From: Candidatus Wildermuthbacteria bacterium
GTDB taxonomy: Bacteria > Patescibacteriota > Minisyncoccia > Minisyncoccales > UBA10102
DNA: 64,000 bases
Direction of reading: 5' to 3'
NCBI GenBank assembly: GCA_016186115.1
Contig: JACPMK010000003.1
Location: 90,470 to 154,469 of the forward strand
The notes below the pieces were generated by a model that saw only the letters and a list, made by a program, of their open reading frames with translations, had not been told where the DNA came from and made no database searches. This document shows positions 3,538 through 59,712 of this stretch, piece by piece. Made by a program: the position numbers and the translations under genes. Each line of letters begins with the position of its first letter. Within the stretch, counting starts at the first letter, position 1.

Positions 3538-5370
3538 ATGTGCGGAATTGTTGGCTATATTGGCAAGCAAAAAGATATACGGATTGGCCTTGAGGCATTG
3601 CGGCGTCTGGAATACAGAGGATATGATTCTGCCGGGATGGCCGTGTACAATGCCGATGCGAAAACAATTCACTCTTTAAAAGCCGTGGGGAGGGTTGTAA
3701 ATTTGGAGCAAAGATTGAAAGAAGTTTCTTTCGAAGGAAGCCCATTTCTTTTTTATACAAGGTGGGCAACGCATGGCGGCGTCACCGAAGAAAATTGTCA
3801 TCCGCATTCCGATTGCAAAAATTCTGTCTGGGTAGTGCATAACGGCATTATCGAGAATTACCGTGAACTCAAAGAAAAATTGCAGCAGGAAGGTCATGCT
3901 TTTCATTCAGAAACAGATACGGAAGTAATTCCCCATTTGATAGAGCGTTTTTTCGAAGGCAATCTGGAGGAGGCAGTGCGCAAAATGCTTGGGTTGATCA
4001 GAGGGTCATTTGCTTTGGGTATTATTTCCAAGGATGATCCAGAAAAGCTTGTAGTCGTGCGCAATTCGGCACCTTTGCTCATCGGCGTTGGCGAAAATGA
4101 ATATCTGGTCGCATCAGATCCTTCTGCAATTGTGAGCCAGACAAAAAAAGTGATGTATCTGGAAGATGGCGAGATGGCATCTCTTACTCCTGAACGATGT
4201 TTGATTGAGGATATCAATCATCATGCGGTTCGCAAAGCAATTCATGAGATTGATTGGAGCGTAGAAGATGCGCAGAAAGGCGGCTATTCCCATTTTATGC
4301 TCAAGGAAATTATGGAGCAGCCAGAAAGTATTACCAATGCCTTGCGGGGAAGGGTATTGCCAGACACGGGCGAGGCGCGATTCGGTGGGCTAAGCGTAGT
4401 GCGGGAAAGATTGCGCTCAATCAAACGTATCAGCATAACTGCTTGCGGAACCGCATATTATGCCGGCTTGGTGGGAAGGTACATGCTTGAGGAATATACG
4501 GGCTTGCCTTGCGAGGCGGATGTTGCTTCTGAATTTCGCTATCGCAGACCGATCGTGAAAGACGACACCGCATTTCTTTTTATTTCCCAGTCAGGAGAAA
4601 CAGCGGATACCTTGGCCGCATTGCGCGAGGTAAAGAAAAAGGGAGGGCTTACCCTTGGGATTATCAATGTGACCGGGTCGTCGGTGGCAAGAGAGACCGA
4701 TGCAGGGATATACAATCATGCCGGGCCTGAAATCGGGGTTGCTTCGACCAAAGCATTTACCTCGCAGCTCACGATTTTGGCGTTGCTCACTTTGCTTCTA
4801 GGGAGGCAGCGGGAAATGTCGCTGGCGGACGGGCAAGTCGTTACAAGGGAGCTTCAAAGAATTCCCGATTTGGTTAAGCAAATTTTAGAGCAGAGAGAAA
4901 AGATAAAAGAAATTGCAGAGAAATACAAACATGCAGAAAACTTTTTATTCATTGGCAGAAAATATAACTATCCGGTTGCCTTGGAGGGGGCTCTCAAATT
5001 GAAAGAAATCTCGTATATTCATGCCGAGGGATACGGCGCGGGCGAAATGAAGCATGGCCCCATCGCGCTGATCGATGAGCAGTTTCCTACGATTGCTCTT
5101 TGCCCGCAAGACAGCGTGTACGAAAAAATGGTTTCCAATATCCAAGAGATCAAAGCGAGAAAGGGACCAGTGATCGCGATCACGAACGAAGGGAATGGCG
5201 GAATGAAAGAAATTGCAGACGACGTAATTTTTGTTCCAAGAACAATTGAGATGCTCAATCCTATCCTTATGGTTATTCCGTTGCAGCTGTTCGCCTATTT
5301 CATTGGAGTCGCGCGAGGATATGATGTGGACAAGCCCCGCAATTTAGCAAAGAGCGTTACAGTTGAATAG
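3538..5370 (+). CDS. glmS: Glutamine--fructose-6-phosphate aminotransferase (isomerising)
   Basis: 610 aa with an N-terminal MCGIVGY Ntn-amidotransferase start, two SIS domains, and the C-terminal ...LAKSVTVE. Confidence 0.97.
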   Translation: MCGIVGYIGKQKDIRIGLEALRRLEYRGYDSAGMAVYNADAKTIHSLKAVGRVVNLEQRLKEVSFEGSPFLFYTRWATHGGVTEENCHPHSDCKNSVWVVHNGIIENYRELKEKLQQEGHAFHSETDTEVIPHLIERFFEGNLEEAVRKMLGLIRGSFALGIISKDDPEKLVVVRNSAPLLIGVGENEYLVASDPSAIVSQTKKVMYLEDGEMASLTPERCLIEDINHHAVRKAIHEIDWSVEDAQKGGYSHFMLKEIMEQPESITNALRGRVLPDTGEARFGGLSVVRERLRSIKRISITACGTAYYAGLVGRYMLEEYTGLPCEADVASEFRYRRPIVKDDTAFLFISQSGETADTLAALREVKKKGGLTLGIINVTGSSVARETDAGIYNHAGPEIGVASTKAFTSQLTILALLTLLLGRQREMSLADGQVVTRELQRIPDLVKQILEQREKIKEIAEKYKHAENFLFIGRKYNYPVALEGALKLKEISYIHAEGYGAGEMKHGPIALIDEQFPTIALCPQDSVYEKMVSNIQEIKARKGPVIAITNEGNGGMKEIADDVIFVPRTIEMLNPILMVIPLQLFAYFIGVARGYDVDKPRNLAKSVTVE

Positions 5371-5377
5371 AAACACC

Positions 5378-6442
5378 ATGAAACTTTTTGAATACGAAGG
5401 GAAAAAACTTTTCGAAAAATACGGCATTCCCGTGCCAAAGGGTGTGCTTTTGACGATGGAGTCAACCAGACCATTGCTTGCCCCTCCGCTTGCGCTGAAG
5501 GCGCAGGTTCTTGCGGGAGAGCGAAAGGCAAGGGGAGGAGTTCTCTTTGTGGAAGATATGCAGGATTTTGAAAAAGCAAAAAGAAAACTTTTTGAAACAA
5601 CTATTGATGGCGAGACCCCTTCATATATTTTAGCCGAAGAAAGAATTCAAGCAGTTCAGGAATTATATGTAAGCTTTAGTTACGATACCGAAAGCAGAGG
5701 ACCCATTCTTGCAATTTCTGCAAAAGGAGGAACTGGCATTGCCGAGGCACAAATTATTCCTATTGATATTGCTTTGGGGTTGCCCGATTTTCTTATTCGC
5801 AACGCCTTGCTGCAAGCCCAGCTCCCATTGAATTCTTCATTGATCGCACTTATCAAATCGCTTTGGAGATTATTTATAGAGGAGAAAGCGATTCTTGCCG
5901 AAATCAACCCTCTTTTTGTGGTGAAAGAAGGAGTATATGTTGCGGGCGATGCAAAAATTATCCTTGATGACAATGTGATGAATCCTTTGTTCCGTCCCTT
6001 TCTCGATCTTGATGGCGACATTGCGGTGCTGGCATCGGGCGGAGGGGCCTCGCTCATAAATTTAGATGCTCTGCTTTATTTCGGCGGCAAACCTGCAAAT
6101 TATGTGGAGTATTCTGGCAATCCTCCGGCATCGGTGGTTGAAGAGTTGACGGTGCGGGTGTTCTCAAAACCCGGATTGAAGGGCTGCTGGGTGGTTGGGG
6201 GGACAGCGAACTTCACGGATATTTATGAGACCATGCTTGGGTTTGTGCAGGGTTTGCGCAAAATCCAGCCCAAGCCAACTTTTCCCATTGTGATTCGCAG
6301 AGATGGCCCGCGCCAAAAAGAGGGCTTTGAAATGCTACGAGAAGTTGCAAAAAATGAAGGATACAATTTCCATTTGTATGGGCCAGAGCTTCCTATGTCA
6401 GAGACAGCCCGCATTATGGTTGAATTAGCTTATAAAAAATGA
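5378..6442 (+). CDS. ATP-grasp beta-type subunit, ATP-citrate lyase / citryl-CoA synthetase-like (SucC superfamily)
   Basis: The ORF runs 5363-6442 and the likely start is the ATG at 5378 (MKLFEYEGKKLFEKYGIPVP). The motif GGGASLINLDALLYFGGKPANYVEYSGNP resembles the ACL-type ANYGEYSG block more than the SucC block. Confidence 0.7.
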   Translation: MKLFEYEGKKLFEKYGIPVPKGVLLTMESTRPLLAPPLALKAQVLAGERKARGGVLFVEDMQDFEKAKRKLFETTIDGETPSYILAEERIQAVQELYVSFSYDTESRGPILAISAKGGTGIAEAQIIPIDIALGLPDFLIRNALLQAQLPLNSSLIALIKSLWRLFIEEKAILAEINPLFVVKEGVYVAGDAKIILDDNVMNPLFRPFLDLDGDIAVLASGGGASLINLDALLYFGGKPANYVEYSGNPPASVVEELTVRVFSKPGLKGCWVVGGTANFTDIYETMLGFVQGLRKIQPKPTFPIVIRRDGPRQKEGFEMLREVAKNEGYNFHLYGPELPMSETARIMVELAYKK

Positions 6443-7341
6443 GCATTCTTGTTGATAAAAATACAATAGTTCTTGTGCAGGGAATTACGGGGAGAGAGGG
6501 CTCGCGTGCGGCGCGCGAGATGATTTCTTATGGAACAAAAGTTGCTGCTGGCGTGACTCCAGGCAAGGGCGGAACAAAAACCGAAGAAGGAATCCCAGTT
6601 TTCAATAGCGTGAAAGAAGCAAAAGGAGCATTCCCCGAAATCAACACTTCTTTGATTGCGGTGCCTCCGGCATTTGTGCTTGATGCGACTCTGGAGGCAA
6701 TGGCAAATCGTATACGGCTCATTGATATTCTTACCGAAAAAGTGCCTGTTGCAGAAGTGGCTCGCATGATTCGTTTTGCAGAGTATTATCAGGCAAAAAT
6801 TGTTGGGCCGAGTTCGGTTGGCATTCTTTCGCCCGGCAAAGGAAAGGTAGGCAGCATTGGCAGTTCTGAATTGGTGTATCGTATTTTTGCCCCCGGCCCA
6901 GTGGGCGTCATTTCCAAAAGCGGAGGAATGACTGCCGAACTTTCGAGAATTCTTACCGAGCAAGGTCTGGGCCAGAGCACCATTATTGGGATCGGCGGAG
7001 ATTTGTTGATCGGTTCTGATTTTGTTGATCTTGCCCTTGAATTTGAAAAGGACGCAGAAACAAAGGCAATCGCGATCTTTGGTGAGATCGGCGGCACCTA
7101 TGAGGAGCAGCTAGCAGAAGCAATAAGCGCAGGAAAAATTACCAAGCCCGTTGTCGCGCTCATTGCGGGGCGTTTCGCAGAACAGCTTCCGCAAGATACA
7201 GTATTGGGCCATGCGGGAGCAATCGTGAGCAAAGGAAGAGGATCGGCACGATCGAAGATCGAAGCGCTCACCAAGGCAGGCGCTCTTGTTGCCAACACCC
7301 CGGAAGAAATCCCATCGCTTATAAAAAAGGTCCTTACCTAA
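6439..7341 (+). CDS. CoA-binding alpha-type subunit (SucD / ACL-alpha / CcsB-like) with phosphohistidine loop
   Basis: 300 aa with VQGITGREGS, TPGKGG, and the phosphohistidine loop VLGHAGAIVS. It overlaps the upstream gene by 4 nt. Confidence 0.8.
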   Translation: MSILVDKNTIVLVQGITGREGSRAAREMISYGTKVAAGVTPGKGGTKTEEGIPVFNSVKEAKGAFPEINTSLIAVPPAFVLDATLEAMANRIRLIDILTEKVPVAEVARMIRFAEYYQAKIVGPSSVGILSPGKGKVGSIGSSELVYRIFAPGPVGVISKSGGMTAELSRILTEQGLGQSTIIGIGGDLLIGSDFVDLALEFEKDAETKAIAIFGEIGGTYEEQLAEAISAGKITKPVVALIAGRFAEQLPQDTVLGHAGAIVSKGRGSARSKIEALTKAGALVANTPEEIPSLIKKVLT

Positions 7342-7396
7342 GGGTCCTCTCAAACATGTTCCTTCGACGACGTTTCGTATTGTAAATTACAAGAAT

Positions 7397-8122
7397 ATGA
7401 AGTTTCACACAAGTATTAGTAAAACAGAAAATGGGGTTCATGTGATCCGTGGCCATGATCTCATTGAGCTCATGGAAAAGCACTCATTTGTGGAGGTGAT
7501 TTTTTTGCTCTTGCGAGGCAGTTTGCCAGAAGAGCGTGAACGAGAATTGATGGAAACAATGTTGGTAGCTCCGGTAGAAAACGGACTGGAAGCGCCTTCT
7601 ATTTTTATTCCTCGCATCGTGGCTTCTACGGGAAATAATTTTCATACCGCATTGGCTGCAGGAGTATTGGCAATTGGCGAGCGGCACGGCGGCGCAGGAG
7701 AAGCAGCGGCGCAATTGTTTTCCTCAGGAAAAAGTGCAGTTGAAATTGTAGATGAATATATACGCAATAAAAAGATTCTTCCGGGTTTTGGCCACAAGAT
7801 TTATAAAGAAGAAGACCCGAGGGCAACTGCAATATATAAGAGAGCAAAAGAACTCGGATTCTCTTGTCGATATTTTGAACTTGCCTATGCCATAGAGCAG
7901 GAGTTTGCCAAGCAAAAGGGCAAAAAAATTCCTCTCAATATCGATGGCGCGTTGGCGGCAGGATTGCTTGAGCTTGGGTTTGACGCACGGCTCGGGAAAG
8001 CATTCTTTTTGATTTCACGGATCATTGGCATGTCCGCACATATCTTGGAGGAGCTTAATCAGAATAATCCCTATTATCGTCTTGAAGAGAGCGAAGTTAC
8101 TCCTGACGAAAATGCATCATGA
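7397..8122 (+). CDS. Short citrate-synthase-fold protein (citryl-CoA lyase-like)
   Basis: 241 aa that retains the citrate-synthase catalytic contexts ERHGGAGEAA, GFGHKIYKEEDPRA and LNIDGALAA. Its length matches the lyase or C-terminal ACL module, not a full citrate synthase. Confidence 0.7.
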   Translation: MKFHTSISKTENGVHVIRGHDLIELMEKHSFVEVIFLLLRGSLPEERERELMETMLVAPVENGLEAPSIFIPRIVASTGNNFHTALAAGVLAIGERHGGAGEAAAQLFSSGKSAVEIVDEYIRNKKILPGFGHKIYKEEDPRATAIYKRAKELGFSCRYFELAYAIEQEFAKQKGKKIPLNIDGALAAGLLELGFDARLGKAFFLISRIIGMSAHILEELNQNNPYYRLEESEVTPDENAS

Positions 8123-8607
8123 GGTTTAAGAAAATCAAAATACGAAATGCCAAGCCCCGCGATATAAAGAAAATCATCGAGCTCGAAAAGATTCTCGCAA
8201 ACTATCATCATCGGCTCGACCCTCTTTATTATAGATCGGGAACACAGCTCTCGCTTGTAGAAATTGAGAGATATTTACGCAGACAGCTAAAGAAAAACAA
8301 TGTCGTGATGCTTGTCGCGAAAAAAGACAATGAAGTGATCGGTTATTTCGAGGGGCAAATCAATAAACGAGACCCCTTGTTGATTCCTCAAAGGACTGGG
8401 TATCTGTCGAGCGCGGTGATCAAACATCGCTATCGAAAGCTGGGTTTGGGCCGGATGATGTTTGAGAGAATGGAAGAATGGATGAAAAGACGCAAGATAG
8501 AATACCTCGAATTGACGGTTAATTCGAACAATAAGAAAGGCATACGGACGTGGAAAAATTTGAGATTTAGAGAATTTATGAAGGGAATGCGAAAACCAAT
8601 GCTATGA
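8119..8607 (+). CDS. GNAT family N-acetyltransferase
   Basis: 162 aa with the acetyl-CoA binding-type segment RYRKLGLGRMMFERMEEW. Confidence 0.7.
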   Translation: MRFKKIKIRNAKPRDIKKIIELEKILANYHHRLDPLYYRSGTQLSLVEIERYLRRQLKKNNVVMLVAKKDNEVIGYFEGQINKRDPLLIPQRTGYLSSAVIKHRYRKLGLGRMMFERMEEWMKRRKIEYLELTVNSNNKKGIRTWKNLRFREFMKGMRKPML

Positions 8608-9551
8608 GACAAAAAAATGTGGTGGTTATTGGCGGAGGAACAGGAACGTACACGGTATTGAGCGGATTAAAATATTTTCCCGTGCATCTTTCCGCGATTG
8701 TTTCCATGGCTGATGACGGGGGTTCAACCAAGCTTTTGCGCGAGGAGTTTGGAATATTGCCCCCGGGTTCGGTACGCCCTGCTATGATCGCGCTTTCTCA
8801 CACGGAAAAAGCATTAGCCGATTTGTTCAGTTTTCGTTTTTCCGAAGGCAGCTTGAAGGGGCATAATGTCGGTAATTTATTGATTACTGCCCTCACACGG
8901 CATTTAGGAAGTTTTGAAAAAGCGATTGAAGAGGCAGGGAAGATTCTTCACATCAAAGGAGAAGTAATTCCTTCCACGCTCCAGCCCTGCTGGCTTTTTG
9001 CACAACTTGAAAATGGCCGAATTGTAAAGGGCGAGACCAATATCGATATTCCCAAGCACAATGGCGAGCTGAAGATAGCCGATGTTTGGCTGGATCCTCC
9101 ATGCAAGGCCAACCCAAAAGCCCTCGAAGCAATTCACAGAGCAGACCTTATTGTGATAGGCCCCGGAGATCTTTTCTCAAGCATTCTTCCTAATTTTTTG
9201 GTGAAGGGAATTGCAGAGAAAATAAAAAAATCCAAAGCAAAAAAGACCTATGTATGTAATGTGATGACAAAGTTTGGGGAGACAACTGGATATAGCGCAT
9301 CTGACTTTATCACTATGATCGAGCGGTTTATCGGAAAAAATACCTTACGTTATGTGCTTTTAAACAAGGGGAGGCCTTCCCGGGAGCGAATCCAGAAATA
9401 TGAAAAAGAAAAATCTGAAATCGTTTCTCTTTCTCCCCAGCAATTAAAAGGAGCGCATTATGCCGTTATTGAGGGGAATTTTTTACGCTCTCGCGGATTG
9501 ATCCGTCATGATCCAATGAAATTAGCAAGTGCGCTTTTTTCTTTACTATAA
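8604..9551 (+). CDS. YvcK / CofD-family protein (UPF0052, gluconeogenesis factor-like)
   Basis: 315 aa with an N-terminal VVVIGGGTGTYTVLSGLK, MADDGGSTKLLREEFG and LIVIGPGDLFSSILPN. Confidence 0.8.
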   Translation: MRQKNVVVIGGGTGTYTVLSGLKYFPVHLSAIVSMADDGGSTKLLREEFGILPPGSVRPAMIALSHTEKALADLFSFRFSEGSLKGHNVGNLLITALTRHLGSFEKAIEEAGKILHIKGEVIPSTLQPCWLFAQLENGRIVKGETNIDIPKHNGELKIADVWLDPPCKANPKALEAIHRADLIVIGPGDLFSSILPNFLVKGIAEKIKKSKAKKTYVCNVMTKFGETTGYSASDFITMIERFIGKNTLRYVLLNKGRPSRERIQKYEKEKSEIVSLSPQQLKGAHYAVIEGNFLRSRGLIRHDPMKLASALFSLL

Positions 9552-9555
9552 TTCT

Positions 9556-10818
9556 ATGCAGGCAGTTATTATTGCGGCAGGAGAATCTTCTCGGTTTTGG
9601 CCATTAAATCATATCCATAAAACCCAGACCTATCTTTTGGGCAAGCCCATTATCTATTGGACATTGAAGGGTTTTGCAGAACACGGCATTCAAGATATTG
9701 TAATTGTGTGTCGCCCAAACTCTTCGATGCAAGAACTTCTGGAAAAAGAAAATGATCTTGGGGTGAGGATTTCTTTCGTTGTGCAGCAGGAACCTTTGGG
9801 AACGGGCAATGCCTTGTGGCAGGCGAAAGAATTAATCACAAAACCTTTTTATGTCTGCTGGCCAAATAAAGTGAATGCCGGAGAAATTATACATTTGATG
9901 GAGGAAAAACGAAAGGCAGGGGCGCAAGGAGTTCTGGTTGGAGGTTACACTGCAACCCCCTGGGATTACGGGATATTTCGTTGCGAAAATGATCGCATGG
10001 TTGAAATCGTAGAAAATCCTTTGCCTGGCAAGGAGCCATCAAATATCAAAATGCTTGGGCTGATGTATTTTGAGCGGGACTTTTTCAATTATTATGAGAA
10101 GCTGCCGGAGCATCACGAGGCCGACTTTATTGACGCAATCAATGCATACAGCAGAGAAAAACGGATATCCTTTGTGGCGCTTTCTGATGAGGCGCCCGCA
10201 CTAAAATATCCGTGGGAATTATTTGTGCTTTCTGATATTTTATTTAGGTCTTCGCTATTTTTTCCTGCTATTGCTCCAAGCGCGACCATTGGCAAGAACG
10301 TAATTATTGATGGCATGGTTCGTATTGGGGAGCATACGATTATCCACGACAGTACCATTATTACGGGCCCTTGTTTTATCGGCCCCGATTGCGAAATTGG
10401 ATACAGCAATGTGTTGCGGGGGCCGGTGGATTTGGAGCGGGGAGTAAAAACCGGAGCATACATGGAAATAAAACATAGCATTGTACAGGAAGGAACCCAT
10501 TTTCACTCCGGATTTCTTGGGGATTGTCTTGTTGGGAAAAACTGCCGATTCGGCGCTGGGTTTATTGCTGCGAATCGTCGTATGGATCGAGGTTCCATTG
10601 CTGTTTCGATAAAAGGGAAAAAGGTTGATACCGGACTGGATTTTTTTGGCGCCGCAATTGGCGAGGCAAGCCGTTTTGGCATTCACTCGGGAACAATGCC
10701 CGGAGTGCTGATAGGATCTCATTGTGTCATAGGGCCGGGCACCCATGTATTTGACAATATTCCAGACAATACTTCTGTGGTAACGAAATTTGCGAATGAG
10801 GAAAAGGAAATACCCTGA
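9556..10818 (+). CDS. Sugar-phosphate nucleotidyltransferase with C-terminal left-handed beta-helix (GlmU-like)
   Basis: The ORF runs 9529-10818 and the likely start is the ATG at 9556 (MQAVIIAAGESSRFWPL). The C-terminal half is rich in hexapeptide repeats. Confidence 0.75.
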   Translation: MQAVIIAAGESSRFWPLNHIHKTQTYLLGKPIIYWTLKGFAEHGIQDIVIVCRPNSSMQELLEKENDLGVRISFVVQQEPLGTGNALWQAKELITKPFYVCWPNKVNAGEIIHLMEEKRKAGAQGVLVGGYTATPWDYGIFRCENDRMVEIVENPLPGKEPSNIKMLGLMYFERDFFNYYEKLPEHHEADFIDAINAYSREKRISFVALSDEAPALKYPWELFVLSDILFRSSLFFPAIAPSATIGKNVIIDGMVRIGEHTIIHDSTIITGPCFIGPDCEIGYSNVLRGPVDLERGVKTGAYMEIKHSIVQEGTHFHSGFLGDCLVGKNCRFGAGFIAANRRMDRGSIAVSIKGKKVDTGLDFFGAAIGEASRFGIHSGTMPGVLIGSHCVIGPGTHVFDNIPDNTSVVTKFANEEKEIP

Positions 10819-28357: not shown

Positions 28358-29551
28358 ATGGCTCGGACACTTTTATTTCCTCAGGGATTTTTTTGGGGTA
28401 CTGCAACTTCTGCTCATCAAGTCGAGGGGAATAATATTTATTCAGATTGGTGGAAGGCAGAACAGGAAGGCAAGGTGCCCCATAAATCGCAAAGAGCATG
28501 CGATTCATACAATCGCTACGAAGAAGATTTTGATTTGGCAAAAGCAATGCACAACAATGCGTATCGTTTTTCTATTGAGTGGGCGCGCATTGAGCCCCAA
28601 GAGGGCAAGTTTCAAGAAGAAGAAATCGAGCATTATCGCAGGGTGATCCGTGCCGCAAAAGAGCGGGGGCTGGAACCATTCGTAACATTGCACCATTATA
28701 CAGTTCCACAATGGTTTGCAGAAAAAGGTGGATGGACTCATAAAAAAGCTCCAGAGTATTTCGAGCGATATGTGCAATTTGTTGTAGAGCGGCTTGGAAA
28801 TGATGCGCGCTATTGGGTCACAATCAATGAACCCCTTATTCTGCTTGTGAAGGGGTATGGATCAGGAAGTTTCCCGCCATTTAAACGAAATAATTTCTTA
28901 GGGATGTTGCAAGCTACTTTTACAATGATAAAAGCCCATAAAAGGGCCTATAAAGTTATTCATGATCGAAATCCCGAAGCAAAAGTAGGCGTTGCGCATG
29001 CGATTAACTATTTAGAATCATCTGGGGGGATATTTCATGTTTTACAGATTCCAGTTGTTTTTGTACTGCGGTATGTTAAAGATCAATGGTTTTTGGATCA
29101 AATTAAAAACTCACAGGATTTTATTGGGGTAAACCACTATAGGCGTATAAAATTTTCATTCCGTAGAGGATCTTTTACAGAAGGAGATATTCTAAGCGAT
29201 TTTGGGTGGGAAGTTTATCCTCGTGGTATGTACCATGTGGTAAAATCCTTGCAAAGGTTTAAGCTACCCATTTTTATTACGGAAAATGGTATTGCGAATG
29301 CAAAGGATGATCATCGCTCAGCTTTTATAGTCGAACATTTGCAAGAGTTGCATAAAGCAATTGAAGAGGGGGCTGATGTGAGGGGATATTTTCATTGGTC
29401 GTTGCTCGATAACTTTGAATGGGCAGAGGGATTTCATATGAAATTTGGATTGGTCGAGGTTGATTTTGAAACATTAGAGAGGCGGCCTCGCCCCAGCGCA
29501 AATACATATGCCGAAATCTGCAGAACCAGTTCATTGGAAATTGATAGTTGA
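28358..29551 (+). CDS. Glycoside hydrolase family 1 beta-glucosidase
   Basis: 397 aa with FFWGTATSAHQVEG, the acid/base TINEP, and the nucleophile FITENG. Confidence 0.9.
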   Translation: MARTLLFPQGFFWGTATSAHQVEGNNIYSDWWKAEQEGKVPHKSQRACDSYNRYEEDFDLAKAMHNNAYRFSIEWARIEPQEGKFQEEEIEHYRRVIRAAKERGLEPFVTLHHYTVPQWFAEKGGWTHKKAPEYFERYVQFVVERLGNDARYWVTINEPLILLVKGYGSGSFPPFKRNNFLGMLQATFTMIKAHKRAYKVIHDRNPEAKVGVAHAINYLESSGGIFHVLQIPVVFVLRYVKDQWFLDQIKNSQDFIGVNHYRRIKFSFRRGSFTEGDILSDFGWEVYPRGMYHVVKSLQRFKLPIFITENGIANAKDDHRSAFIVEHLQELHKAIEEGADVRGYFHWSLLDNFEWAEGFHMKFGLVEVDFETLERRPRPSANTYAEICRTSSLEIDS

Positions 29552-29569: not shown

Positions 29570-30487
29570 ATGGTGTGGCTTTTTGTAACAATATTTTCAT
29601 ACTTCCTTTTTGCATTTTCTTCCTTAACGGATCGGTATCTTTTGGCAGGCCCATTGCCCCATCCCCGCGTGTACGCATTTTATACCGGCATCACCGGCAT
29701 TCTTGCGGTTGCGCTTATTCCTTTGGGATTTCAGTTTTTGGGCCTGCCCTTTGCCTTGCGAGGTTTGGCAGCTGGAGCAATCGGCCTGCTTGGCATTTAT
29801 GCCTTGTACCGAGCAGTGTTTCGGGGCGGGGTATCCAGAATTGTGCCGATGGTGGGGGCGCTTGTGCCTATTTTTACATCTCTTATGGCAATAAGCATTC
29901 TTTCTGAACCAGTGGAACTTTCGCAAAACATTCTGATTGCGCTGGTCTTGTTTATTGTAGGGACATTCTTTTTATCGTTGCGAGGTTCTTTGCTTGAATT
30001 TCGGCCCTCATGGTTTGATATGGGCAATGCGCTCGTGATTGCGTTTCTTTTTTCCTTTTCCCTTGTTTTGACAAAGAACGTGTATGATGAAGGCGGATTT
30101 CTGAATGGATTTATGTGGATGCGCTGGGGTGGGTTTTTGGCCTCGCTTTCTTTCCTTGTATTTCCCGTTACGCGTGGAGTTGTATTTCGGAAACAACAAA
30201 ATCCAGTGCAGCAGAAGCGCATTCTTTTGCCATTTCTATCGGGAAAAGGGGCCGGCATGTTCGCATTTCTCTTGCAGCAGGTGGCGTTGTATCTGGCAAG
30301 GCCATTTCAAGTCGCCTTAATGAGCGCATTGCAGGGAGTGCAGTACGCATTTTTGCTCGTATTTGTTGCGATATTGTCTTTTAAAAACCCAGACATATTG
30401 AAAGAAGAATTTTCTAGTGCAAATGCCATTTGGCGTATCATCGGCGTGGCATGTATAGGAGCAGGATTTTTGTTTTTCGCGGTATGA
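29570..30487 (+). CDS. Polytopic membrane protein, DMT/EamA-like transporter
   Basis: The track ORF starts at a TTG (29555) and an in-frame ATG lies at 29570. It has ~10 predicted hydrophobic segments. The family call is weak. Confidence 0.5.
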   Translation: MVWLFVTIFSYFLFAFSSLTDRYLLAGPLPHPRVYAFYTGITGILAVALIPLGFQFLGLPFALRGLAAGAIGLLGIYALYRAVFRGGVSRIVPMVGALVPIFTSLMAISILSEPVELSQNILIALVLFIVGTFFLSLRGSLLEFRPSWFDMGNALVIAFLFSFSLVLTKNVYDEGGFLNGFMWMRWGGFLASLSFLVFPVTRGVVFRKQQNPVQQKRILLPFLSGKGAGMFAFLLQQVALYLARPFQVALMSALQGVQYAFLLVFVAILSFKNPDILKEEFSSANAIWRIIGVACIGAGFLFFAV

Positions 30488-31509
30488 AATTTATATTCCT
30501 TCGTTTCCGCATTTTCTTTATTTTTTTGGCTATCCTTCTTTTCACGCTGGGGGGCGTGTTTATCTTCTTGTTCATCGGCAACACAAAGCAAGCAGAACAT
30601 ATTACATGGGGCGCAACATTCGGGCATTCGCAGGCAGAGTCGCTTGGGCTTAATTGGAGAGAGACGTACCTTGCGCTTGTAGATGATATGGGGGTTCGGA
30701 GGTTTCGCATCCCAATTTATTGGGATGAGTTAGAAAAAGAAAAGGGCAAGTTCGATTTTTCTGCATGGGATTGGCAATTGCAAGAATTAGAAAAGCGGGG
30801 CGGAAAAGCGTTTTTGGCAATTGGCATGAAATTACCGCGCTGGCCTGAGTGCCGAATTCCAGAATGGGCAAAGGATTTATCGAAAGAAGATCGGGAAAAA
30901 GAGATTCTAGCTATGCTTAGTGTAGTAGTTGAGCATTTTAAAGATAATCCCGCGGTATGGGCTTGGCAGGTGGAAAATGAACCAATGCTGCGATTTGGAA
31001 ATTGCCCGGAACCGCGCATAGAGAAAAGATTTCTTGATCAGGAAATTGCGCTGGTGCGTAAAGCCGATCCTTCGCGCCCCATTATTCTTTCTGATACCGG
31101 AGAGAATTCCTTTTGGTTGCAAACAGGAAAACGGGCTGATATTTTCTCGAGCACCCTATTCCGTATTATCCATAATCCCACTATTGGCTATGTTCGATAT
31201 CCGTATCCTCCGATCATGTATCATCGCAAAGCAGCATGGCTGCATATATGGTATCCGAATGTGCGGATTATTGTGGGAGAACTTCAGGCAGAACCATGGG
31301 TTGTGAAACCTCCGATTTCGCAATATTCCGTTGAGGAGCAATATGAAACCATGAGTCCGGAACAATTTTCAAACAACATCGAATATGCCAAGAATACGGG
31401 TTTTGATGAGTTTTATTTGTGGGGGAGCGAATGGTGGTATTGGTTAAAAACCCATGGCGAAACAGATATTTGGCAAAAAGCAGGAGAGCTATTTCATAGT
31501 AAGAATTAA
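30484..31509 (+). CDS. Membrane-anchored clan GH-A TIM-barrel glycosidase-like protein (GH42/GH5-like), paralogue 1
   Basis: The likely start is the ATG at 30484 (an ATGA junction). It has an N-terminal transmembrane segment, WQVENEP (acid/base-like) and IVGELQAEPW (nucleophile-like). Confidence 0.6.
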   Translation: MKFIFLRFRIFFIFLAILLFTLGGVFIFLFIGNTKQAEHITWGATFGHSQAESLGLNWRETYLALVDDMGVRRFRIPIYWDELEKEKGKFDFSAWDWQLQELEKRGGKAFLAIGMKLPRWPECRIPEWAKDLSKEDREKEILAMLSVVVEHFKDNPAVWAWQVENEPMLRFGNCPEPRIEKRFLDQEIALVRKADPSRPIILSDTGENSFWLQTGKRADIFSSTLFRIIHNPTIGYVRYPYPPIMYHRKAAWLHIWYPNVRIIVGELQAEPWVVKPPISQYSVEEQYETMSPEQFSNNIEYAKNTGFDEFYLWGSEWWYWLKTHGETDIWQKAGELFHSKN

Positions 31510-32517
31510 ATGAAGCGTATTTTCTTAGCTATTATCTTGCTACTGGTTGCGGCTGTTTTGTTTTTCTTTACGGGCGTTCCCAAGCCCGCAGAAAAAATTC
31601 TATGGGGCATAACTTTTTCTCATTCTTATGCAAGAGACCTTGGATTGGATTGGCGCCAGACATATCTTGCTTTGCTCGATGATCTTGGCGTAAGGAATAT
31701 CCGTATTCCTCTCTATTGGAATGAGTTGGAGCGGGAGGAGGGAGCATTCGATTTTTCTTTATGGGATTGGCAATTGCAAGAATTAGAAAAAAGACAGGGC
31801 AAGGCAATCATAGCAATTGGCGTAAAACTTCCTCGCTGGCCCGAATGCCATATACCAGAGTGGGCAAGGGGTTTATCGCAAGAAAAGCGCCAAGAAGCAG
31901 TTCTTTCGATGCTTCAGGAGGTTGTTGAGCATTACAAAAATTGGAATGTTATTGAGAAATGGCAGGTGGAAAACGAATATACCGCGTCTTCGGGCATTTG
32001 CCCGAAATTAGACGTATCCTTGCTTCCAAAAGAAGTACATTTGGTGCGTACGCTGGATCAGCGACAAATTATTCTACAAGATGAGGGCATTGCATCTTCA
32101 TGGTTTTTTGCTGGGGAATATGCTGATATTATTGGAATTTCGATGTATCGTTTTCGAGCAAGCGAGACATTGGGATTGATTCATTATCCCTTTCCTCCAG
32201 CCATTTTCCAGAGAAAAGCGCAGCTTTTTCATATGAAATATCCCAACAAAAAAGTGATTATCACAGAACTGCAAGCAGAGCCATGGCCAGTAACTGGAAC
32301 AGTGGAGGGAGATTATAGAACAATGGACCCGCAGCGTTTTCAGCAGCATATTGCATACGCGAAACGCACTGGTTTTGATGAATTTTATCTCTGGGGCGCC
32401 GAATGGTGGTACTGGTTGAAAATTCATGGCGAGAATGCTATTTGGAATGAGGCAAAAGAATTGTATAATGAAATATATTTATTGAACTTTTTGCATGCGA
32501 AAACGCATCTATCTTGA
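31510..32517 (+). CDS. Membrane-anchored clan GH-A TIM-barrel glycosidase-like protein, paralogue 2 (tandem duplicate)
   Basis: It is collinear with paralogue 1: LGLDWRQTYLALLDDLGVRNIRIPLYWNELEREEGAFDFSLWDWQLQELEKR against LGLNWRETYLALVDDMGVRRFRIPIYWDELEKEKGKFDFSAWDWQLQELEKR. It also has WQVENEY and IITELQAEPW. Confidence 0.6.
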   Translation: MKRIFLAIILLLVAAVLFFFTGVPKPAEKILWGITFSHSYARDLGLDWRQTYLALLDDLGVRNIRIPLYWNELEREEGAFDFSLWDWQLQELEKRQGKAIIAIGVKLPRWPECHIPEWARGLSQEKRQEAVLSMLQEVVEHYKNWNVIEKWQVENEYTASSGICPKLDVSLLPKEVHLVRTLDQRQIILQDEGIASSWFFAGEYADIIGISMYRFRASETLGLIHYPFPPAIFQRKAQLFHMKYPNKKVIITELQAEPWPVTGTVEGDYRTMDPQRFQQHIAYAKRTGFDEFYLWGAEWWYWLKIHGENAIWNEAKELYNEIYLLNFLHAKTHLS

Positions 32518-40608: not shown

Positions 40609-43600
40609 ATGAGTAAATTCGCAAAGAAATTCTTTACGACTGCAATTATTTCCGTTGTGGCGGTAAGCGTTGCCGTTCCTGCTGGAGTAGCGAACGGAGC
40701 AACGGTAGATGAGCTTCAGGCGCAGATTAATGCGCTTTTAGCGCAGATCGCTCAATTGCAGACGCAGTTGTCAGGACAGACGACTGGCGGCACAACCGGT
40801 ACTCTTTCCGGAATTCCTGCCGGTTTCACCTTTACGACAAATCTTTCGCAGGGTGCCAGCGGAAATGACGCGAAATATCTCCAGATTGTGCTGAACTCTG
40901 ATTCTGCTACAATGGTCGCGAGTTCAGGAGCTGGTTCTTCGGGAAATGAAACTACATTCTTTGGTCCTAAAACCAAGACTGCAGTTGTAAAGTTCCAGGA
41001 GAAATATGCTTCTGAAGTTTTGGCTCCATGGGGAATGACACAGGGGAGCGGTTTTGTTGGATCTACCACCAGAGCAAAGTTGAATGCTTTGATTTCTGGC
41101 GGAGTGAGTCCATCACCTAGCCCGTCTGCTTCGCCATCTCCTTCAGCTTCTCCGACACCAACACCAACACCCGGAACAGGAAATACCCTTCAGGTATCTC
41201 TTGCTTCTGACACACCCGCAGCAGCAACAGTTGTAGCGGGTGGAAATGCCAACTTCACCAAATTCTGGCTAACAGCCGGAAGTTCAGAAGTTGCGATCTC
41301 CAGCTTGTATGTTACGAGATCTGGATTGACAGCAAATTCTGATCTCGAGAACGTCAAAATTCTCGATGAGAATGGAGTAAAGGTAGGATCGCTTGGCACG
41401 TTGAATACCAACAGTAAAGCGCAGATTACCTTCTCTCCGTCATTGAAGATTGCTGCGAATACCAGCAAAGCGTTCTATATCAGAGCAGGAGCAATCAGTG
41501 GCATTACTGCTGGGAAAACCGCAGTATTGGGCATTGATGCTGCCGCAGATGTCAATGCAGGAGGCGCTACGGTAAGTGGTTCTTTCCCAGTAAAGGGGAA
41601 CACCATGACCGCAGTATCTCTTACGATTGGTTCTGTTGAGGTTATGGAAGACGGCGCATTGACTGATTCCCAGCCCAATGTTGGGGATAAGGATGTTGTC
41701 GTGAACGCCTTCAAAGTGGTGGTGGGATCAACAGAAGGAGTAACTATTGAGCAGATTACCGTAGAGGAATCGGGTACTGCTTCGTTGACTGACACCCAGA
41801 ATATCGAGCTGTATGATGTGACCAAGGGAGTGTCATTGGGAACAACCCAGTGGACTGCTGACGGCAAAGCATCATGGGGCGGCTTGAATCTTTCTCTTAC
41901 TAAAGGAGAAACACGCCGCTTGAGAGTGCAACTCGATGTTATTGATGGCCCCAGCTTGACTGTGAATGCTGATCTTATGGATGGAAGCGATGTATTGATG
42001 TCTGTCAAGGGTAATACCTATGGCTTCTACATCACTCCTGATGGAAACGATGCTTCCGACTGGACGAACAGCAATGATGGTTTGGCAAACAGCAACCAGA
42101 CCGTTCAAACAGGAGCAGTAACAGTGTCTAAGTCCTCATCTACCCCTGCAACTGGAAATATTGCCCAAGCGAACAATCAATCGCTTGCCGCATTTGATTT
42201 CTTGGTTCAGGGCGAATCAGTCAAGATTACTTCGCTGAAGTTATCCTTTGACTTGGGAAGCATGGAGGAAACAGAGGTAACCAATGTCAAGATATATGAT
42301 AAGAACGGAACTCTGCTTGCAGGACCCCAGGATTTGAACACAACCAACGTAACTGGCGCAAACAGCACCACCTACGAAGGTTCTGTTACGTTCACTGATA
42401 CGATTATTCTTCCCGTGGGCACAAATACCTTATCCGTGAAAGCGGATATTGCAACCGCTACTTCGGGAGATGACACCATTAGGGTTGGTATTTCTGATGC
42501 CGATGCCACTGACATTACGGTAACCGGAATGACATCGAATAATACGATTGGCTCAACGCCAGCTAACACGGAAGTAAATGCCAACACTCAAACAGTGAAG
42601 GCAGCTGCTTTGGTAGCGCGAACTCTTACTACTCCTGCGGCTACGAACGTAGCAAAGGGAGTAAATGATTACGTATTTGCCATTGTTGCTCTGGATGCAA
42701 ATAACTCCGGCGAGGATGTATTGGTAACGTCATTAACCGTTACTGATACTCCGGCGGGAGGCGCAGACGCGAGCGACATTGACAATACCGAGATTTGGGC
42801 TGACTTGACCGCAGACAAGAGTTCCCGCGGAGATGTGTACGAGACCCTTGTGGGCAATCCTCTGCAGTTCGACGAAACAACCCTTAACACCGCAGATACA
42901 TTGGCTTACACATTGACCAAGACCATTCGCGTTCCGAAGGATAGTTACGTCAATGTGGCGGTAGTCGGAGATGTGGCGACAGGAGCTACTAACGGATCTC
43001 ATACAATGAAAATCAGCGCCGCAACTGGTACCGGAGCTGACACGGGAAATGCCATTACCGAAACGTTTTCTGGCAATGGTCAGGCAATGACCCTATCTAC
43101 CAGCGGTGCCTTAACAGTTGCGTTGGATGCCTCTTCTCCCGCATCAAAGCTGATGGTTGGAAGCGCGAGCAAGGAAACCTTGGCAGCATTCAAGCTTTCA
43201 GCCAATGCAGTGGAGAATCTGGATATCGACTCTGTGCAGTTAAAGGTGACCAATGGTGATATGGTGGCTACGTGGTATCTCTATGATGGTGATACCCTGT
43301 TGAGCTCGAGTTCTTCCGTAACAGCTTCTACGGAAACCGATCTCACGATCAATCTTGTTGACAATACGCTTGTGGTTCCTGCTGGAAGCAGCAAGCGACT
43401 CACCGTGAAAGGTGATTTGCAGCCAGCTACTACAAGCAGCCATGACAACGTGAGTATTCAGGTTGGCGTGGTGGATGCGAGTGACATTGTTTCAACCGGG
43501 AAATCATCCGGTGCTGCCGTAAACTCAACCGGCACAGGAACTGCTTCGGCACATGATCTCTATCGATCGTATCCGAAGTTTAGTGTCAATTCAGCATCGC

Positions 43601-44067
43601 CTGCCACCGGAAGCCATGTTACCTTGGGAGCCAAGCAATTGATCGCGATCTTCGATGTGACTTCTGTTGGCGGAAAAGATATCTCCTTCGAGAACGGTGA
43701 TTCCAACAGCTTTGTCTTGCAGATTACCTTAAACGGTGACGATACGGATACCGCCAATGAAACGATTACCATCGAAGATGGAGCCGGTAACATACTTGAT
43801 ACAGGCACTGTTACCAGCGCTTCGGCAACATCCGAGATTACAGTTGACTTCTCGACTAATAACCTTACAGTGTCTGGCACAGCAGGTGCCCAGATAAAGG
43901 TGTATGCTGATACCTCTGACTTGGAAGATCAGGGAAATACCATTCAGGCGTGGCTTGATCCTACCGCCGGTGATGTGAACTGGGGTATTGATGGATCGGG
44001 CAACTACACTGATGGCGATAAGATCTTCAAGGGAGGCATCTATGGCGGTTCTCTGGTAAAGCCGTAA
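40609..44067 (+). CDS. Giant secreted/cell-surface repeat protein with N-terminal anchor, coiled coil, PG-binding-like domain and Pro/Ser linker
   Basis: 1152 aa. In order it has a signal/anchor FTTAIISVVAVSVAVPAG, a coil LQAQINALLAQIAQLQTQL, a PG_binding_1-like segment GNDAKYLQIVLNSD...FGPKTKTAVVKFQEKY, a linker SPSPSPSASPSPSASPTPTPTPG, and then ~6-7 divergent 130-150-aa beta-rich modules. Confidence 0.85.
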   Translation: MSKFAKKFFTTAIISVVAVSVAVPAGVANGATVDELQAQINALLAQIAQLQTQLSGQTTGGTTGTLSGIPAGFTFTTNLSQGASGNDAKYLQIVLNSDSATMVASSGAGSSGNETTFFGPKTKTAVVKFQEKYASEVLAPWGMTQGSGFVGSTTRAKLNALISGGVSPSPSPSASPSPSASPTPTPTPGTGNTLQVSLASDTPAAATVVAGGNANFTKFWLTAGSSEVAISSLYVTRSGLTANSDLENVKILDENGVKVGSLGTLNTNSKAQITFSPSLKIAANTSKAFYIRAGAISGITAGKTAVLGIDAAADVNAGGATVSGSFPVKGNTMTAVSLTIGSVEVMEDGALTDSQPNVGDKDVVVNAFKVVVGSTEGVTIEQITVEESGTASLTDTQNIELYDVTKGVSLGTTQWTADGKASWGGLNLSLTKGETRRLRVQLDVIDGPSLTVNADLMDGSDVLMSVKGNTYGFYITPDGNDASDWTNSNDGLANSNQTVQTGAVTVSKSSSTPATGNIAQANNQSLAAFDFLVQGESVKITSLKLSFDLGSMEETEVTNVKIYDKNGTLLAGPQDLNTTNVTGANSTTYEGSVTFTDTIILPVGTNTLSVKADIATATSGDDTIRVGISDADATDITVTGMTSNNTIGSTPANTEVNANTQTVKAAALVARTLTTPAATNVAKGVNDYVFAIVALDANNSGEDVLVTSLTVTDTPAGGADASDIDNTEIWADLTADKSSRGDVYETLVGNPLQFDETTLNTADTLAYTLTKTIRVPKDSYVNVAVVGDVATGATNGSHTMKISAATGTGADTGNAITETFSGNGQAMTLSTSGALTVALDASSPASKLMVGSASKETLAAFKLSANAVENLDIDSVQLKVTNGDMVATWYLYDGDTLLSSSSSVTASTETDLTINLVDNTLVVPAGSSKRLTVKGDLQPATTSSHDNVSIQVGVVDASDIVSTGKSSGAAVNSTGTGTASAHDLYRSYPKFSVNSASPATGSHVTLGAKQLIAIFDVTSVGGKDISFENGDSNSFVLQITLNGDDTDTANETITIEDGAGNILDTGTVTSASATSEITVDFSTNNLTVSGTAGAQIKVYADTSDLEDQGNTIQAWLDPTAGDVNWGIDGSGNYTDGDKIFKGGIYGGSLVKP

Positions 44068-44165: not shown

Positions 44166-44179
44166 TTGGCCGGGGTTTA

Positions 44180-44188
44180 TGGTATACT
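44180..44188 (+). promoter_or_regulatory. Extended -10 box TGgTATACT, 10 nt upstream of the ATG at 44199
   Basis: Read directly from the sequence: tttaTGGTATACTcaagttagatATG. Confidence 0.45.
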
Positions 44189-44198
44189 CAAGTTAGAT

Positions 44199-50272: not shown

Positions 50273-50979
50273 GAAATTATGACACAGTGAATCCAGAGGT
50301 ATACGAGCGGCGGTTTTTGGATATACCAAGAGAGCGATATCTTGATCATCATTGGCTTCCCCGTTTTATCCGGGCAATTGAAAATTATTGCGATGCAAGA
50401 AAAGTGCTTGATCTGGGATGCGGAACCGGAAGGTATACGCAGATCATTGAAAAGTTCGCGAAAGAAGTCACTGGCGTTGACATTTCTGAAAGATTTCTTC
50501 AATATGCAAGAGAAACATACGGACTTCCCCATCTTATCTGCGGAGATGCGCATCATCTTTCATTGGATGATACATTCGACGTTGTTACTACCTTTGGTCT
50601 TTTTGAATATATTGATCGGGATAGAGTCATGAGAGAGATCGATCGGGTTCTTATTCCGGGAGGGTATCTTATTGTGGCAACCGTCAATAAGTATGGCTTT
50701 GGACGGATGTTACGCAGATTGCGCAGGAGTATTCTTCAGAAAAAGCCCCAAGTTATGGAACCGTCGAAGGGCGAGATGCTCACGCATTTTAAGAGGCATC
50801 ACTTTGAAATTATAGAAGTGCAGATGACCGATGGATTGATTTGGCTTCCAGATTTTTTAGATCGCATGATGGGAGAACAAATCTACATGCTCATCGAAAA
50901 GATATTCCATTTTATCGGCACGAATCCATTAAGCAATACCATGTTATTTATAGCGAAAAAGCAAAATGCCACCAATTGA
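50269..50979 (+). CDS. Class I SAM-dependent methyltransferase
   Basis: The likely start is the ATG at 50269 (an ATGA junction). Motif I is VLDLGCGTGRY, and the segment FDVVTTFGLFEYI is also present. Confidence 0.8.
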   Translation: MRNYDTVNPEVYERRFLDIPRERYLDHHWLPRFIRAIENYCDARKVLDLGCGTGRYTQIIEKFAKEVTGVDISERFLQYARETYGLPHLICGDAHHLSLDDTFDVVTTFGLFEYIDRDRVMREIDRVLIPGGYLIVATVNKYGFGRMLRRLRRSILQKKPQVMEPSKGEMLTHFKRHHFEIIEVQMTDGLIWLPDFLDRMMGEQIYMLIEKIFHFIGTNPLSNTMLFIAKKQNATN

Positions 50980-51961: not shown

Positions 51962-52344
51962 AATTTGTTTTAAAAAGAGAGAAGCATCAGGCACCGAGCG
52001 GGTTTTTGGCAGAACTCGTGTCTTCGAAGTATGCAGATGAACCCTTCAAAATTCATAGTTATTTGGTAAAGATTAATAAAGGATACACGAGAGCAAACCA
52101 TTACCACAAAAAGAAAAAAGAATGGATCACTTCTATCGGAGGCAAGACCCTTTTGAAGCTTAAACACGTCAAGACGGGCCAAAGGAAGCAATACCTTCTT
52201 GATTTTGAGGCCAAAGACCAAAAGATTATTTTTATGCCGCCTTTCTGGTCTCATTCCATAGCAGCCATAGGGGGCGCCTCGGCAGTATTAGTGTTTACGC
52301 TTCGTCCTGAAGATAAGGAAGATACTATTTCTCATGAAGTATAA
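51958..52344 (+). CDS. Cupin-fold sugar isomerase/epimerase (WxcM/FdtA-like)
   Basis: 128 aa with TRANHYHKKKKEW (compare RGxHAHK). Confidence 0.6.
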   Translation: MKFVLKREKHQAPSGFLAELVSSKYADEPFKIHSYLVKINKGYTRANHYHKKKKEWITSIGGKTLLKLKHVKTGQRKQYLLDFEAKDQKIIFMPPFWSHSIAAIGGASAVLVFTLRPEDKEDTISHEV

Positions 52345-52347
52345 AAA

Positions 52348-53493: not shown

Positions 53494-53494
53494 T

Positions 53495-54271: not shown

Positions 54272-54288
54272 TTTATTAAACCCATTGT

Positions 54289-55608: not shown

Positions 55609-55622
55609 ATTAACGAAAGGGC

Positions 55623-56237: not shown

Positions 56238-56256
56238 CGAACATATTCATCATTCT

Positions 56257-57432: not shown

Positions 57433-57433
57433 C

Positions 57434-58201: not shown

Positions 58202-58211
58202 ATGCATCTAT

Positions 58212-59700: not shown

Positions 59701-59712
59701 ATCCGTTTATGT

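Follow-up and report, generated by a model that had tools for sequence, protein, structure and literature searches.

A candidate ATP-dependent citrate-cleavage system encoded by three adjacent genes in Candidatus Wildermuthbacteria and across the Candidate Phyla Radiation

The bacteria of the Candidate Phyla Radiation (CPR), or Patescibacteria, are usually described as lacking a tricarboxylic acid (TCA) cycle, and the stray TCA-type genes found in them are left unexplained or are labelled as succinyl-CoA synthetase (SCS) or citrate synthase. What, then, could three such genes be doing side by side in a metagenome-assembled genome (MAG) of Candidatus Wildermuthbacteria, a member of the Parcubacteria group within the CPR? 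The question concerns a stretch of 64,000 nucleotides of that genome, called the window in what follows, where P1 (5378..6442; 354 aa from an ATG, with an alternative TTG start at 5363), P2 (6439..7341; 300 aa) and P3 (7397..8122; 241 aa) lie co-directionally on the + strand. P1 and P2 overlap by 4 nt (ATGA), while a 55-nt gap separates P2 from P3. An earlier note on this DNA had read them as adjacent genes for an ATP-grasp beta subunit, a CoA-binding alpha subunit and a short lyase; the open reading frames (ORFs) and Pfam domains agree with this, and the motifs that it named (ANYVEYSGNP, GHAGA, HGGA, GFGHKIY and NIDG) are all present in the translations. Our answer, drawn from comparison of the protein sequences, is that the trio very probably encodes a two-enzyme, ATP-dependent citrate-cleavage system of the family that comprises citryl-CoA synthetase with citryl-CoA lyase (CCS/CCL) and ATP-citrate lyase (ACL). 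P1 would be its CcsA/AclB-type beta (large) subunit, P2 its alpha (small) subunit and P3 the citryl-CoA lyase. Genes called independently on eight public contigs yield these same products. We considered and rejected a chance ORF, a pseudogene or gene fragment, and an origin from phage or mobile DNA, given that the region at 4-8 kb has no compositional anomaly and that synteny is conserved. A scan for promoters and terminators remained at chance level (18 against 16.6 expected and 19 against 13.8) and lends no support to co-transcription.

One explanation of such a locus is that P1 and P2 are an ordinary succinyl-CoA synthetase (SucCD) and that P3 is what truncation or decay has left of a citrate or 2-methylcitrate synthase; the three would then be relics of a lost TCA cycle and would not act together. 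P3 indeed matches only the C-terminal part of the Pfam Citrate_synt profile (156 bits, profile positions 164-355 of 357). It nevertheless passes the NCBIfam model NF004869 'citryl-CoA lyase' (238.5 bits, cutoff 212) and falls far under all cutoffs for citrate and 2-methylcitrate synthases, for example 113.8 against 421.3 bits for TIGR01800. Its closest solved structure is the Ccl of Hydrogenobacter thermophilus (6HXP, 9.3e-57), with the best citrate synthase at 4.7e-31. The catalytic contexts of citrate synthase are all in place: HGGA at residues 97-100 (His97; nt 7685-7696), GFGHKIY at residues 130-136 (His133; GFGH at nt 7784-7795) and NIDG at residues 181-184 (Asp183; nt 7937-7948). His97, His133, Asp183, Arg142 and Arg208 are invariant in 66/66 lyase homologues, and the length of the CPR lyase ranges from 226 to 282 aa in 65 loci; given this stable length and these invariant residues, the protein is not a fragment, which speaks directly against a decaying synthase. 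In a neighbour-joining tree, the CPR lyases group with free-standing Ccl at 91% bootstrap, apart from the ACL lyase module and the citrate synthases, and on average they are 44% identical to Ccl, 29% to citrate synthase and 26% to the ACL C-terminal module. The earlier view of the 241-aa protein as Ccl-like rather than a citrate synthase is thereby borne out.

The beta subunit speaks to the substrate. P1 consists of an ATP-grasp domain (ATP-grasp_2, 94.2 bits; residues 1-203) followed by an ACL-type citrate-binding domain (Citrate_bind PF16114, 83.3 bits against a cutoff of 26.8; residues 207-345), and its score with the NCBIfam SucC model, 155.7 bits, does not reach the cutoff of 375.55. Among solved structures it is nearest to the large subunit of H. 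thermophilus citryl-CoA synthetase, CcsA (6HXQ_B, 1.9e-46), with the best SucC at 8e-31 and Chlorobium AclB at 3e-28. Taken separately, the two domains behave differently: the N-terminal ATP-grasp scores 78 bits with CcsA, 78 with SucC and 15-27 with ACL, whereas for the C-terminal domain the scores are 85 bits (AclB), 83 (CcsA) and 20-36 (SucC). In an alignment with CcsA, AclB, the M. concilii ACLY-A and two SucC sequences, P1 carries GGGAS, ANYVEYSGNP (residues 240-249, nt 6095-6124), GGTANFTD (nt 6197-6220) and VIRRDGP (RRDGP at nt 6296-6310), where SucC has GNGAG, ANFLDxGGG, FGGIxR and VVR[LV]xG; the suggestion that ANYVEYSGNP is nearer to the ACL type, ANYxEYSG, than to SucC is therefore well founded. 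The ANFT and RR of P1 align with N346-F347-T348 and R378-R379 of human ACLY, residues that reportedly bind citrate. An AlphaFold (AF2) model of P1 (pLDDT 87.4) shows the complete two-domain fold of SCS-beta, CcsA and ACL, with TM about 0.7. In Foldseek the fold agrees and the closest match overall is SCS-beta, a point in favour of a SucCD identity, although SCS, CCS and ACL are not separable by fold.

A different doubt is whether the pocket might hold another acid, for example malate, isocitrate, 2-methylcitrate or tartrate, with the lyase cleaving the matching acyl-CoA. Such a shift could fit a beta subunit that forms its own clade, shares 30-40% identity with characterised CcsA and AclB and is more compact than they are. 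We nevertheless regard it as quite improbable, for the ACL-type pocket blocks (GGGAS, ANFT and RRxGP) are identical to those of ACL and invariant in 12 CPR homologues, while the lyase keeps the full triad and both arginines and passes a curated Ccl model.

How these proteins are related to the known enzymes is a matter of trees, all of them neighbour-joining on a simple distance with 200 bootstraps and few outgroups (two SucC sequences for beta). References for CcsA came from Hydrogenobacter, Thermocrinis, Hydrogenobaculum and Nitrospirota/Leptospirillum, and those for AclB from Chlorobi and Nitrospira; CcsB, Ccl and AclA were extracted from their own loci, and E. coli SucC, SucD and GltA, together with fragments derived from the PDB, completed the reference set. 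(The numbering of human ACLY used above was taken from a docking paper.) SucC is split from all other beta subunits at 100% bootstrap, which is hard to reconcile with a SucCD identity, and the CPR proteins form their own clade at 98-100%. This clade joins ACL beta at 97% on all columns and at 85% on the C-terminal domain, a node that the N-terminal domain does not resolve, and it joins CcsA in only 2-8% of replicates. The earlier note's comparison with the Aquificae route thus needs one correction: the CPR beta subunits form a separate clade outside the characterised CcsA clade of Aquificae and Nitrospirota. By its sequence, the CPR beta subunit is a member of the wider CCS/ACL beta family and not of the CcsA orthologue group. 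Its sister relation to ACL beta should be taken as a lead only, because it comes from simple distance trees with few outgroups.

The alpha subunit is more ambiguous. P2 has a CoA-binding Rossmann domain and a CoA-ligase domain (Pfam CoA_binding, Ligase_CoA and Succ_CoA_lig), the phosphohistidine loop GHAGA at residues 257-261 (His258; nt 7207-7221), and the further motifs GEIGG (Glu216) and SKSGGMT; His258 and Glu216 are invariant in 75/75 CPR alpha homologues. Its best structure matches are SCS alpha chains (archaeal, 7.5e-83), followed by CcsB (2.3e-55) and ACL (1e-42), and overall the CPR alpha subunits are nearer to SucD, with 47% against 39% mean identity and a range of 43-50% to SucD. 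On the other hand, P2 falls below both NCBIfam SucD cutoffs (287.2 against 353.2), and three signatures are common to the CPR proteins, CcsB and ACL-alpha and absent from both SucD references, the only two used for this comparison: an insertion of 4-8 residues after G[ASI]IG, [ST]KSGG[ML] in place of the SucD SRSGTL, and an insertion of 3 residues ahead of GHAGA. The profile searches proposed in the earlier note therefore came out in favour of its reading, with P3 above the Ccl cutoff and P1 and P2 below those for SucC and SucD. The phylogeny that it proposed did so in part: beta falls outside SucC and the lyase outside the citrate synthases, but alpha groups with SucD by distance.

Two features count against the identification as a citrate-cleavage system. 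The CPR alpha subunits join SucD at 84% bootstrap on overall distance, and the CPR beta subunits fall 60-80 aa short of CcsA (413-438 aa), chiefly because the interdomain linker has been lost. The ambiguity of alpha does not refute a citrate substrate, because this subunit does not bind the organic acid. Database names add to the appearance of a SucCD: GenBank calls P1 'hypothetical protein', P2 'succinate--CoA ligase subunit alpha' and P3 'citryl-CoA lyase', and JGI likewise labels the subunits succinate--CoA ligase, as the earlier note's remark about mis-annotation had anticipated. Newer records of P1 homologues read 'ATP citrate lyase citrate-binding domain-containing protein'. An SCS accompanied by a degraded citrate synthase is, however, effectively excluded by the beta subunit with its ACL citrate-binding domain, by the constant lyase, and by the fact that the trio stays together and in order across two CPR superphyla.

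This last point rests on a scan for beta-subunit relatives with one genome per species, which found relatives, at 42-70% identity, in at least 186 species-level genomes. What might have passed for an oddity of a single genome is thus widespread in the CPR. The best 80 of these at least 186 beta-subunit matches, whose loci were compared in detail, are essentially all CPR and come from many Parcubacteria orders as well as Daviesbacteria and other Microgenomates. About 75 of the 80 loci preserve both the beta-alpha-lyase order and the common strand; the median lengths are 363, 300 and 244 aa, and alpha and lyase are separate ORFs in the related loci too. The lyase was not detected in five loci, four of which end within about 1 kb after beta; in L009, about 2.2 kb follow beta, yet no alpha or lyase match is present. 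In seven Daviesbacteria-type loci (L060, L063, L071, L076, L084, L085 and L086), ORFs of 77-130 aa, belonging to several recurring clusters, lie between the trio genes, and L085 has in addition an ORF of 509 aa between beta and alpha. A large number of 'binchicken' MAG records bear the title 'uncultured Candidatus Saccharibacteria' or 'Gammaproteobacteria' (L007, L008 and L010; L049, L064 and L066; and others); these titles look like placeholder or wrong taxonomy, because the trio sequences and synteny fit loci of the Wildermuth- or Daviesbacteria type.

If the identification is right, the reaction would follow the established mechanism of succinyl-CoA synthetase and ACL, whose key residues are conserved here. 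ATP would bind to the ATP-grasp domain of beta and pass its phosphate to His258 of alpha, after which the phosphohistidine loop would swing to the citrate site in the C-terminal domain of beta, where citryl-phosphate would form. CoA bound on alpha would then attack citryl-phosphate at the interface of the beta C-terminal domain and alpha, yielding citryl-CoA, which the 241-aa lyase, with the His/His/Asp triad of citrate synthase, would split into acetyl-CoA and oxaloacetate.

The type of enzyme is not new. The enzymology of CCS and CCL is known (Aoshima et al. 2004; structures 6HXP and 6HXQ), P3 already bears the name of a citryl-CoA lyase in GenBank, and according to a single sentence of a 2022 bioRxiv preprint, sequences from CPR and DPANN that carry SCS or citrate synthase annotations are monophyletic with CCS or CCL. 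The CPR system resembles the classical CCS/CCL in consisting of three separate polypeptides of equal domain content, in the closest PDB relatives of P1 and P3, in the grouping of its lyase with Ccl, in the CcsB-type insertions and SKSGG motif of alpha, and in the beta-alpha-Ccl order, which recurs in the classical locus L095. It differs in its beta subunit, which stands outside the CcsA clade and has 354 aa in the window, and in an alpha subunit that is overall nearer to SucD. The surroundings differ as well: classical CCS/CCL loci, which work in the reductive TCA cycle of autotrophs, adjoin genes for isocitrate dehydrogenase (IDH), aconitase, SucC and a fumarate-reductase-like protein, whereas CPR loci have amino-sugar and acetyltransferase neighbours and no TCA gene nearby. 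In the locus of H. thermophilus itself (L088), ccsA stands alone, with neither ccsB nor ccl within 8 kb, and NCBI records list its biochemically characterised CcsA under the name 'succinate--CoA ligase subunit beta'.

With ACL (AclB/AclA, EC 2.3.3.8, of Chlorobium, Nitrospira and Methanothrix, and the eukaryotic ACLY), the CPR system shares the grouping of beta with AclB, the ANYxEYSG and ANFTD blocks, and a beta-alpha-lyase order that matches aclB-aclA. It differs in that alpha and lyase are separate genes, while AclA is a fusion of about 606-608 aa (confirmed in loci L092 and L093), and in a lyase that is closer to free-standing Ccl than to the ACL module. With SucC/SucD it has in common the overall fold and the catalytic logic of ATP-grasp, phosphohistidine and CoA site; the C-terminal pocket of beta, however, is of the citrate and not the succinate type, both subunits fall below the curated SCS cutoffs, and a citryl-CoA lyase gene is linked to them in nearly all loci. 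Judged by these mixed sequence affinities, the CPR system would best be regarded as a third lineage within the CCS/CCL-ACL family. It may even be the closest living unfused relative of ACL, because its beta groups with ACL beta while its alpha and lyase are separate and stand in ACL order.

What would such an enzyme be for? The earlier note saw no other TCA-cycle gene in the 64 kb, and our annotation of the whole window agrees. A tblastn search of the window and the 80 loci, 1.15 Mb in total, with aconitase, IDH, fumarate reductase (FRD), SdhA and SucA as queries (OGOR was not queried) likewise found none of these five. Judged from these loci, the trio probably has no place in a TCA or reductive TCA cycle, either in this Wildermuthbacteria genome or across Parcubacteria and Microgenomates. 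Class I/II aminotransferase matches near the trio were considered as aspartate aminotransferases and rejected, since they are really sugar aminotransferases and Kbl-type enzymes.

The neighbours of the trio point elsewhere. GlmS, glutamine--fructose-6-phosphate transaminase (3538..5370, +; TIGR01135, 811.6 bits, cutoff 418), which catalyses the first step of the UDP-GlcNAc pathway, ends 7 nt before P1. Downstream, an acetyl-CoA-dependent N-acetyltransferase of the GNAT family (8119..8607, +; 162 aa; Pfam Acetyltransf_1/10) has a 4-nt overlap between its start and the stop of P3. It is followed by a YvcK/CofD-related protein, under the NCBIfam name UDP-N-acetylglucosamine-binding protein (8604..9551, +; TIGR01826, 331.3 bits, cutoff 196), and by an archaeal-type GlmU-like protein with NTP_transferase and left-handed beta-helix domains (9556..10818, +; TIGR03992, 253.9 bits, just under the cutoff of 292), a bifunctional sugar-1-phosphate nucleotidylyltransferase/acetyltransferase and thus an acetyl-CoA consumer.

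These associations recur. Neighbours were counted within 3 kb in 77 loci, 23 of the Microgenomates type and 54 of the Parcubacteria type. GlmS precedes the trio in 21 loci of the Parcubacteria type, directly adjoining it in about 12, and YvcK lies near the trio in 13 loci. A GlmU-like homologue lies directly upstream in 20 of the 23 Microgenomates-type loci, sometimes at a distance of only 2-8 nt in those of the Daviesbacteria type, and downstream in 9 of the Parcubacteria type. Small GNATs also stand directly 3' of Ccl in other loci, and in 7 loci the GNAT after Ccl is nearest, if weakly (E 3e-7 to 1e-5), to the eukaryotic glucosamine-6-phosphate N-acetyltransferases (GNA1-like). Among the two nearest ORFs across all loci, the most frequent upstream are GlmS (17), NTP_transferase with Hexapep (11) and leucyl-tRNA synthetase (LeuRS; 11), and downstream GNAT (8), Hexapep (7), tryptophanyl-tRNA synthetase (7) and CofD/YvcK (5). 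Altogether, at least one of GlmS, GlmU-like, YvcK or GNAT is present in 51/77 loci, and an acetyl-CoA-dependent acetyltransferase in 44/77 (20/23 of the Microgenomates type and 24/54 of the Parcubacteria type). The Wildermuth-type order is GlmS-trio-(GNAT)-YvcK-GlmU and other loci show GlmS-trio-GNAT, while in a further group the trio sits among genes for an epimerase, a DegT/PseC-type aminotransferase, a WbuX amidotransferase and a PseH-like GNAT.

Since the recurrent neighbours consume acetyl-CoA or serve the UDP-GlcNAc pathway, acetyl-CoA supply is the most economical reading of the trio's role. Citrate, presumably scavenged, would be converted to acetyl-CoA and used for the N-acetylation of amino sugars, that is for UDP-GlcNAc and the cell envelope; PFOR and ACS form the acetyl-CoA route usually described for the CPR. 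If this role is right, eukaryotic ACLY offers a parallel as a supplier of acetyl-CoA outside the TCA cycle. Taken together, a citrate-cleavage system that supplies acetyl-CoA is the account we favour, with some reserve. The identity of the enzymes is very probable; the acetyl-CoA-supplying role is tentative, with chances a little short of even. More doubtful still, though worth stating, is the broader proposal that the trio is a CPR-wide stand-alone module turning citrate from the host or community into N-acetyl sugars of the envelope and is, at the same time, the closest unfused relative of ACL.

This leads to the points that argue against an acetyl-CoA-supplying role. Twenty-six of the 77 loci have no GlmS, GlmU-like, YvcK or GNAT gene within the 3-kb limit, and the GNAT of the window, when a sugar-specific signal was sought in NCBIfam and the PDB, gave generic GNAT matches only. 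In Parcubacteria, some of the adjacency to GlmS and YvcK may stem from synteny that was inherited (LeuRS-GlmS...Sua5-SHMT-FolD) and not from selection. Neither a citrate transporter nor an oxaloacetate-consuming enzyme was seen near the trio. Finally, sequence cannot fix the direction of a reaction that lies near equilibrium, at about -8 kJ/mol overall: a survey of genomes of autotrophs with the reductive TCA cycle gives about -8 for ACL, -5.9 for CCS and -2.1 kJ/mol for CCL.

These small free-energy values, which make the reaction reversible, lend themselves to the main competing explanation, in which the trio runs backwards as an ATP-conserving citrate synthase of an energy-limited fermenter. 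Acetyl-CoA and oxaloacetate would be joined to citryl-CoA and released as citrate and CoA while ADP is converted to ATP, and the citrate would be excreted or passed on, for example towards glutamate and glutamine for GlmS, which, as the commonest neighbour, uses glutamine. The ACL of Desulfobacter postgatei is reported to work in the citrate-forming direction. We consider this reversal unlikely: aconitase, IDH and other citrate-consuming genes are missing from the window and the 80 loci, the recurrent neighbours are consumers of acetyl-CoA and not producers of oxaloacetate, and ADP-forming acetyl-CoA synthetase (ACD) or Pta-Ack would be a simpler source of ATP for an organism that already makes acetyl-CoA.

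As far as our literature search reaches, the breadth of the system in the CPR, its compact, mosaic clade and its association with amino-sugar and acetyltransferase genes instead of the TCA cycle are new. A full-text search for citryl-CoA or citrate lyase in Patescibacteria, CPR or Parcubacteria returned nothing on this system beyond the preprint sentence and a remark on the enrichment of aclAB in Saccharimonadia. A broad survey of carbon fixation and the survey of autotroph genomes cited above report CCS/CCL from autotroph lineages only and do not mention the CPR. The finding overturns nothing, but it fixes a common annotation error and so corrects metabolic reconstructions, in which the trio could otherwise be counted as a partial TCA or reductive TCA cycle or as carbon fixation. 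It also marks citrate as a metabolite for which these symbionts may depend on hosts or media, which could be useful in cultivation attempts. The linkage to GlmS, GlmU-like and GNAT genes offers a testable hypothesis on where the acetyl groups of the cell wall come from under minimal central metabolism. Furthermore, the mosaic relationships of the subunits, with beta close to ACL, the lyase to Ccl and alpha to SucD, bring a third lineage into the debate on the origin of ACL and citrate synthase.

Several further observations concern the genes around the trio. An NRAMP/MntH-like divalent-metal transporter recurs beside the GlmU-like gene and the trio, 1.5-3.8 kb upstream, in 13 loci among L063-L085 (Daviesbacteria/Microgenomates type); it was considered as a citrate carrier and rejected, being a metal transporter. 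In two loci, a divergent Kbl-type glycine C-acetyltransferase, which interconverts acetyl-CoA, lies beside the trio (L078:5808-6995 and L085:5743-6936, both on the - strand; about 450 bits, cutoff 460), next to an ORF of about 335 aa. The upstream GlmS ORF reaches about 1118 aa in three loci (L009:4637-7993, L010:4622-7975 and L017:4639-7995), and Pfam LAGLIDADG_3 and Intein_splicing matches were found in three upstream-neighbour proteins; in these loci, GlmS apparently contains an intein that includes a homing endonuclease.

Elsewhere in the window lie genes for housekeeping, the envelope and N-acetyl sugars. A cluster at 50966-60192 is typical of N-acetyl or nonulosonic sugar synthesis, with a PseB-like Polysacc_synt_2 dehydratase, a DegT aminotransferase, a CTP_transf_3 cytidylyltransferase, a class-III aminotransferase, a GATase and His_biosynth pair, an aldo-keto reductase and two PseH-like GNATs. 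Its ORF at 56161-57432 is without a Pfam match and resembles WbuX-type N-acetyl sugar amidotransferases. The cluster represents additional acetyl-CoA consumers within the window. Two genes probably encode surface or envelope proteins, namely one for a Ser/Thr/Ala-rich protein of 1152 aa with an N-terminal hydrophobic segment and no Pfam match (40609-44067) and one for a protein of 563 aa with a C-terminal peptidoglycan-binding domain (44166-45857). A family-1 glycoside hydrolase (28358-29551) lies just upstream of two tandem, membrane-anchored paralogues (30430-31509 and 31510-32517), the first with a weak Glyco_hydro_42-like match. Over positions 1-64000 the cumulative GC skew climbs monotonically, and almost every gene lies on the + strand, a picture that fits a single replichore and a strong gene-strand bias.

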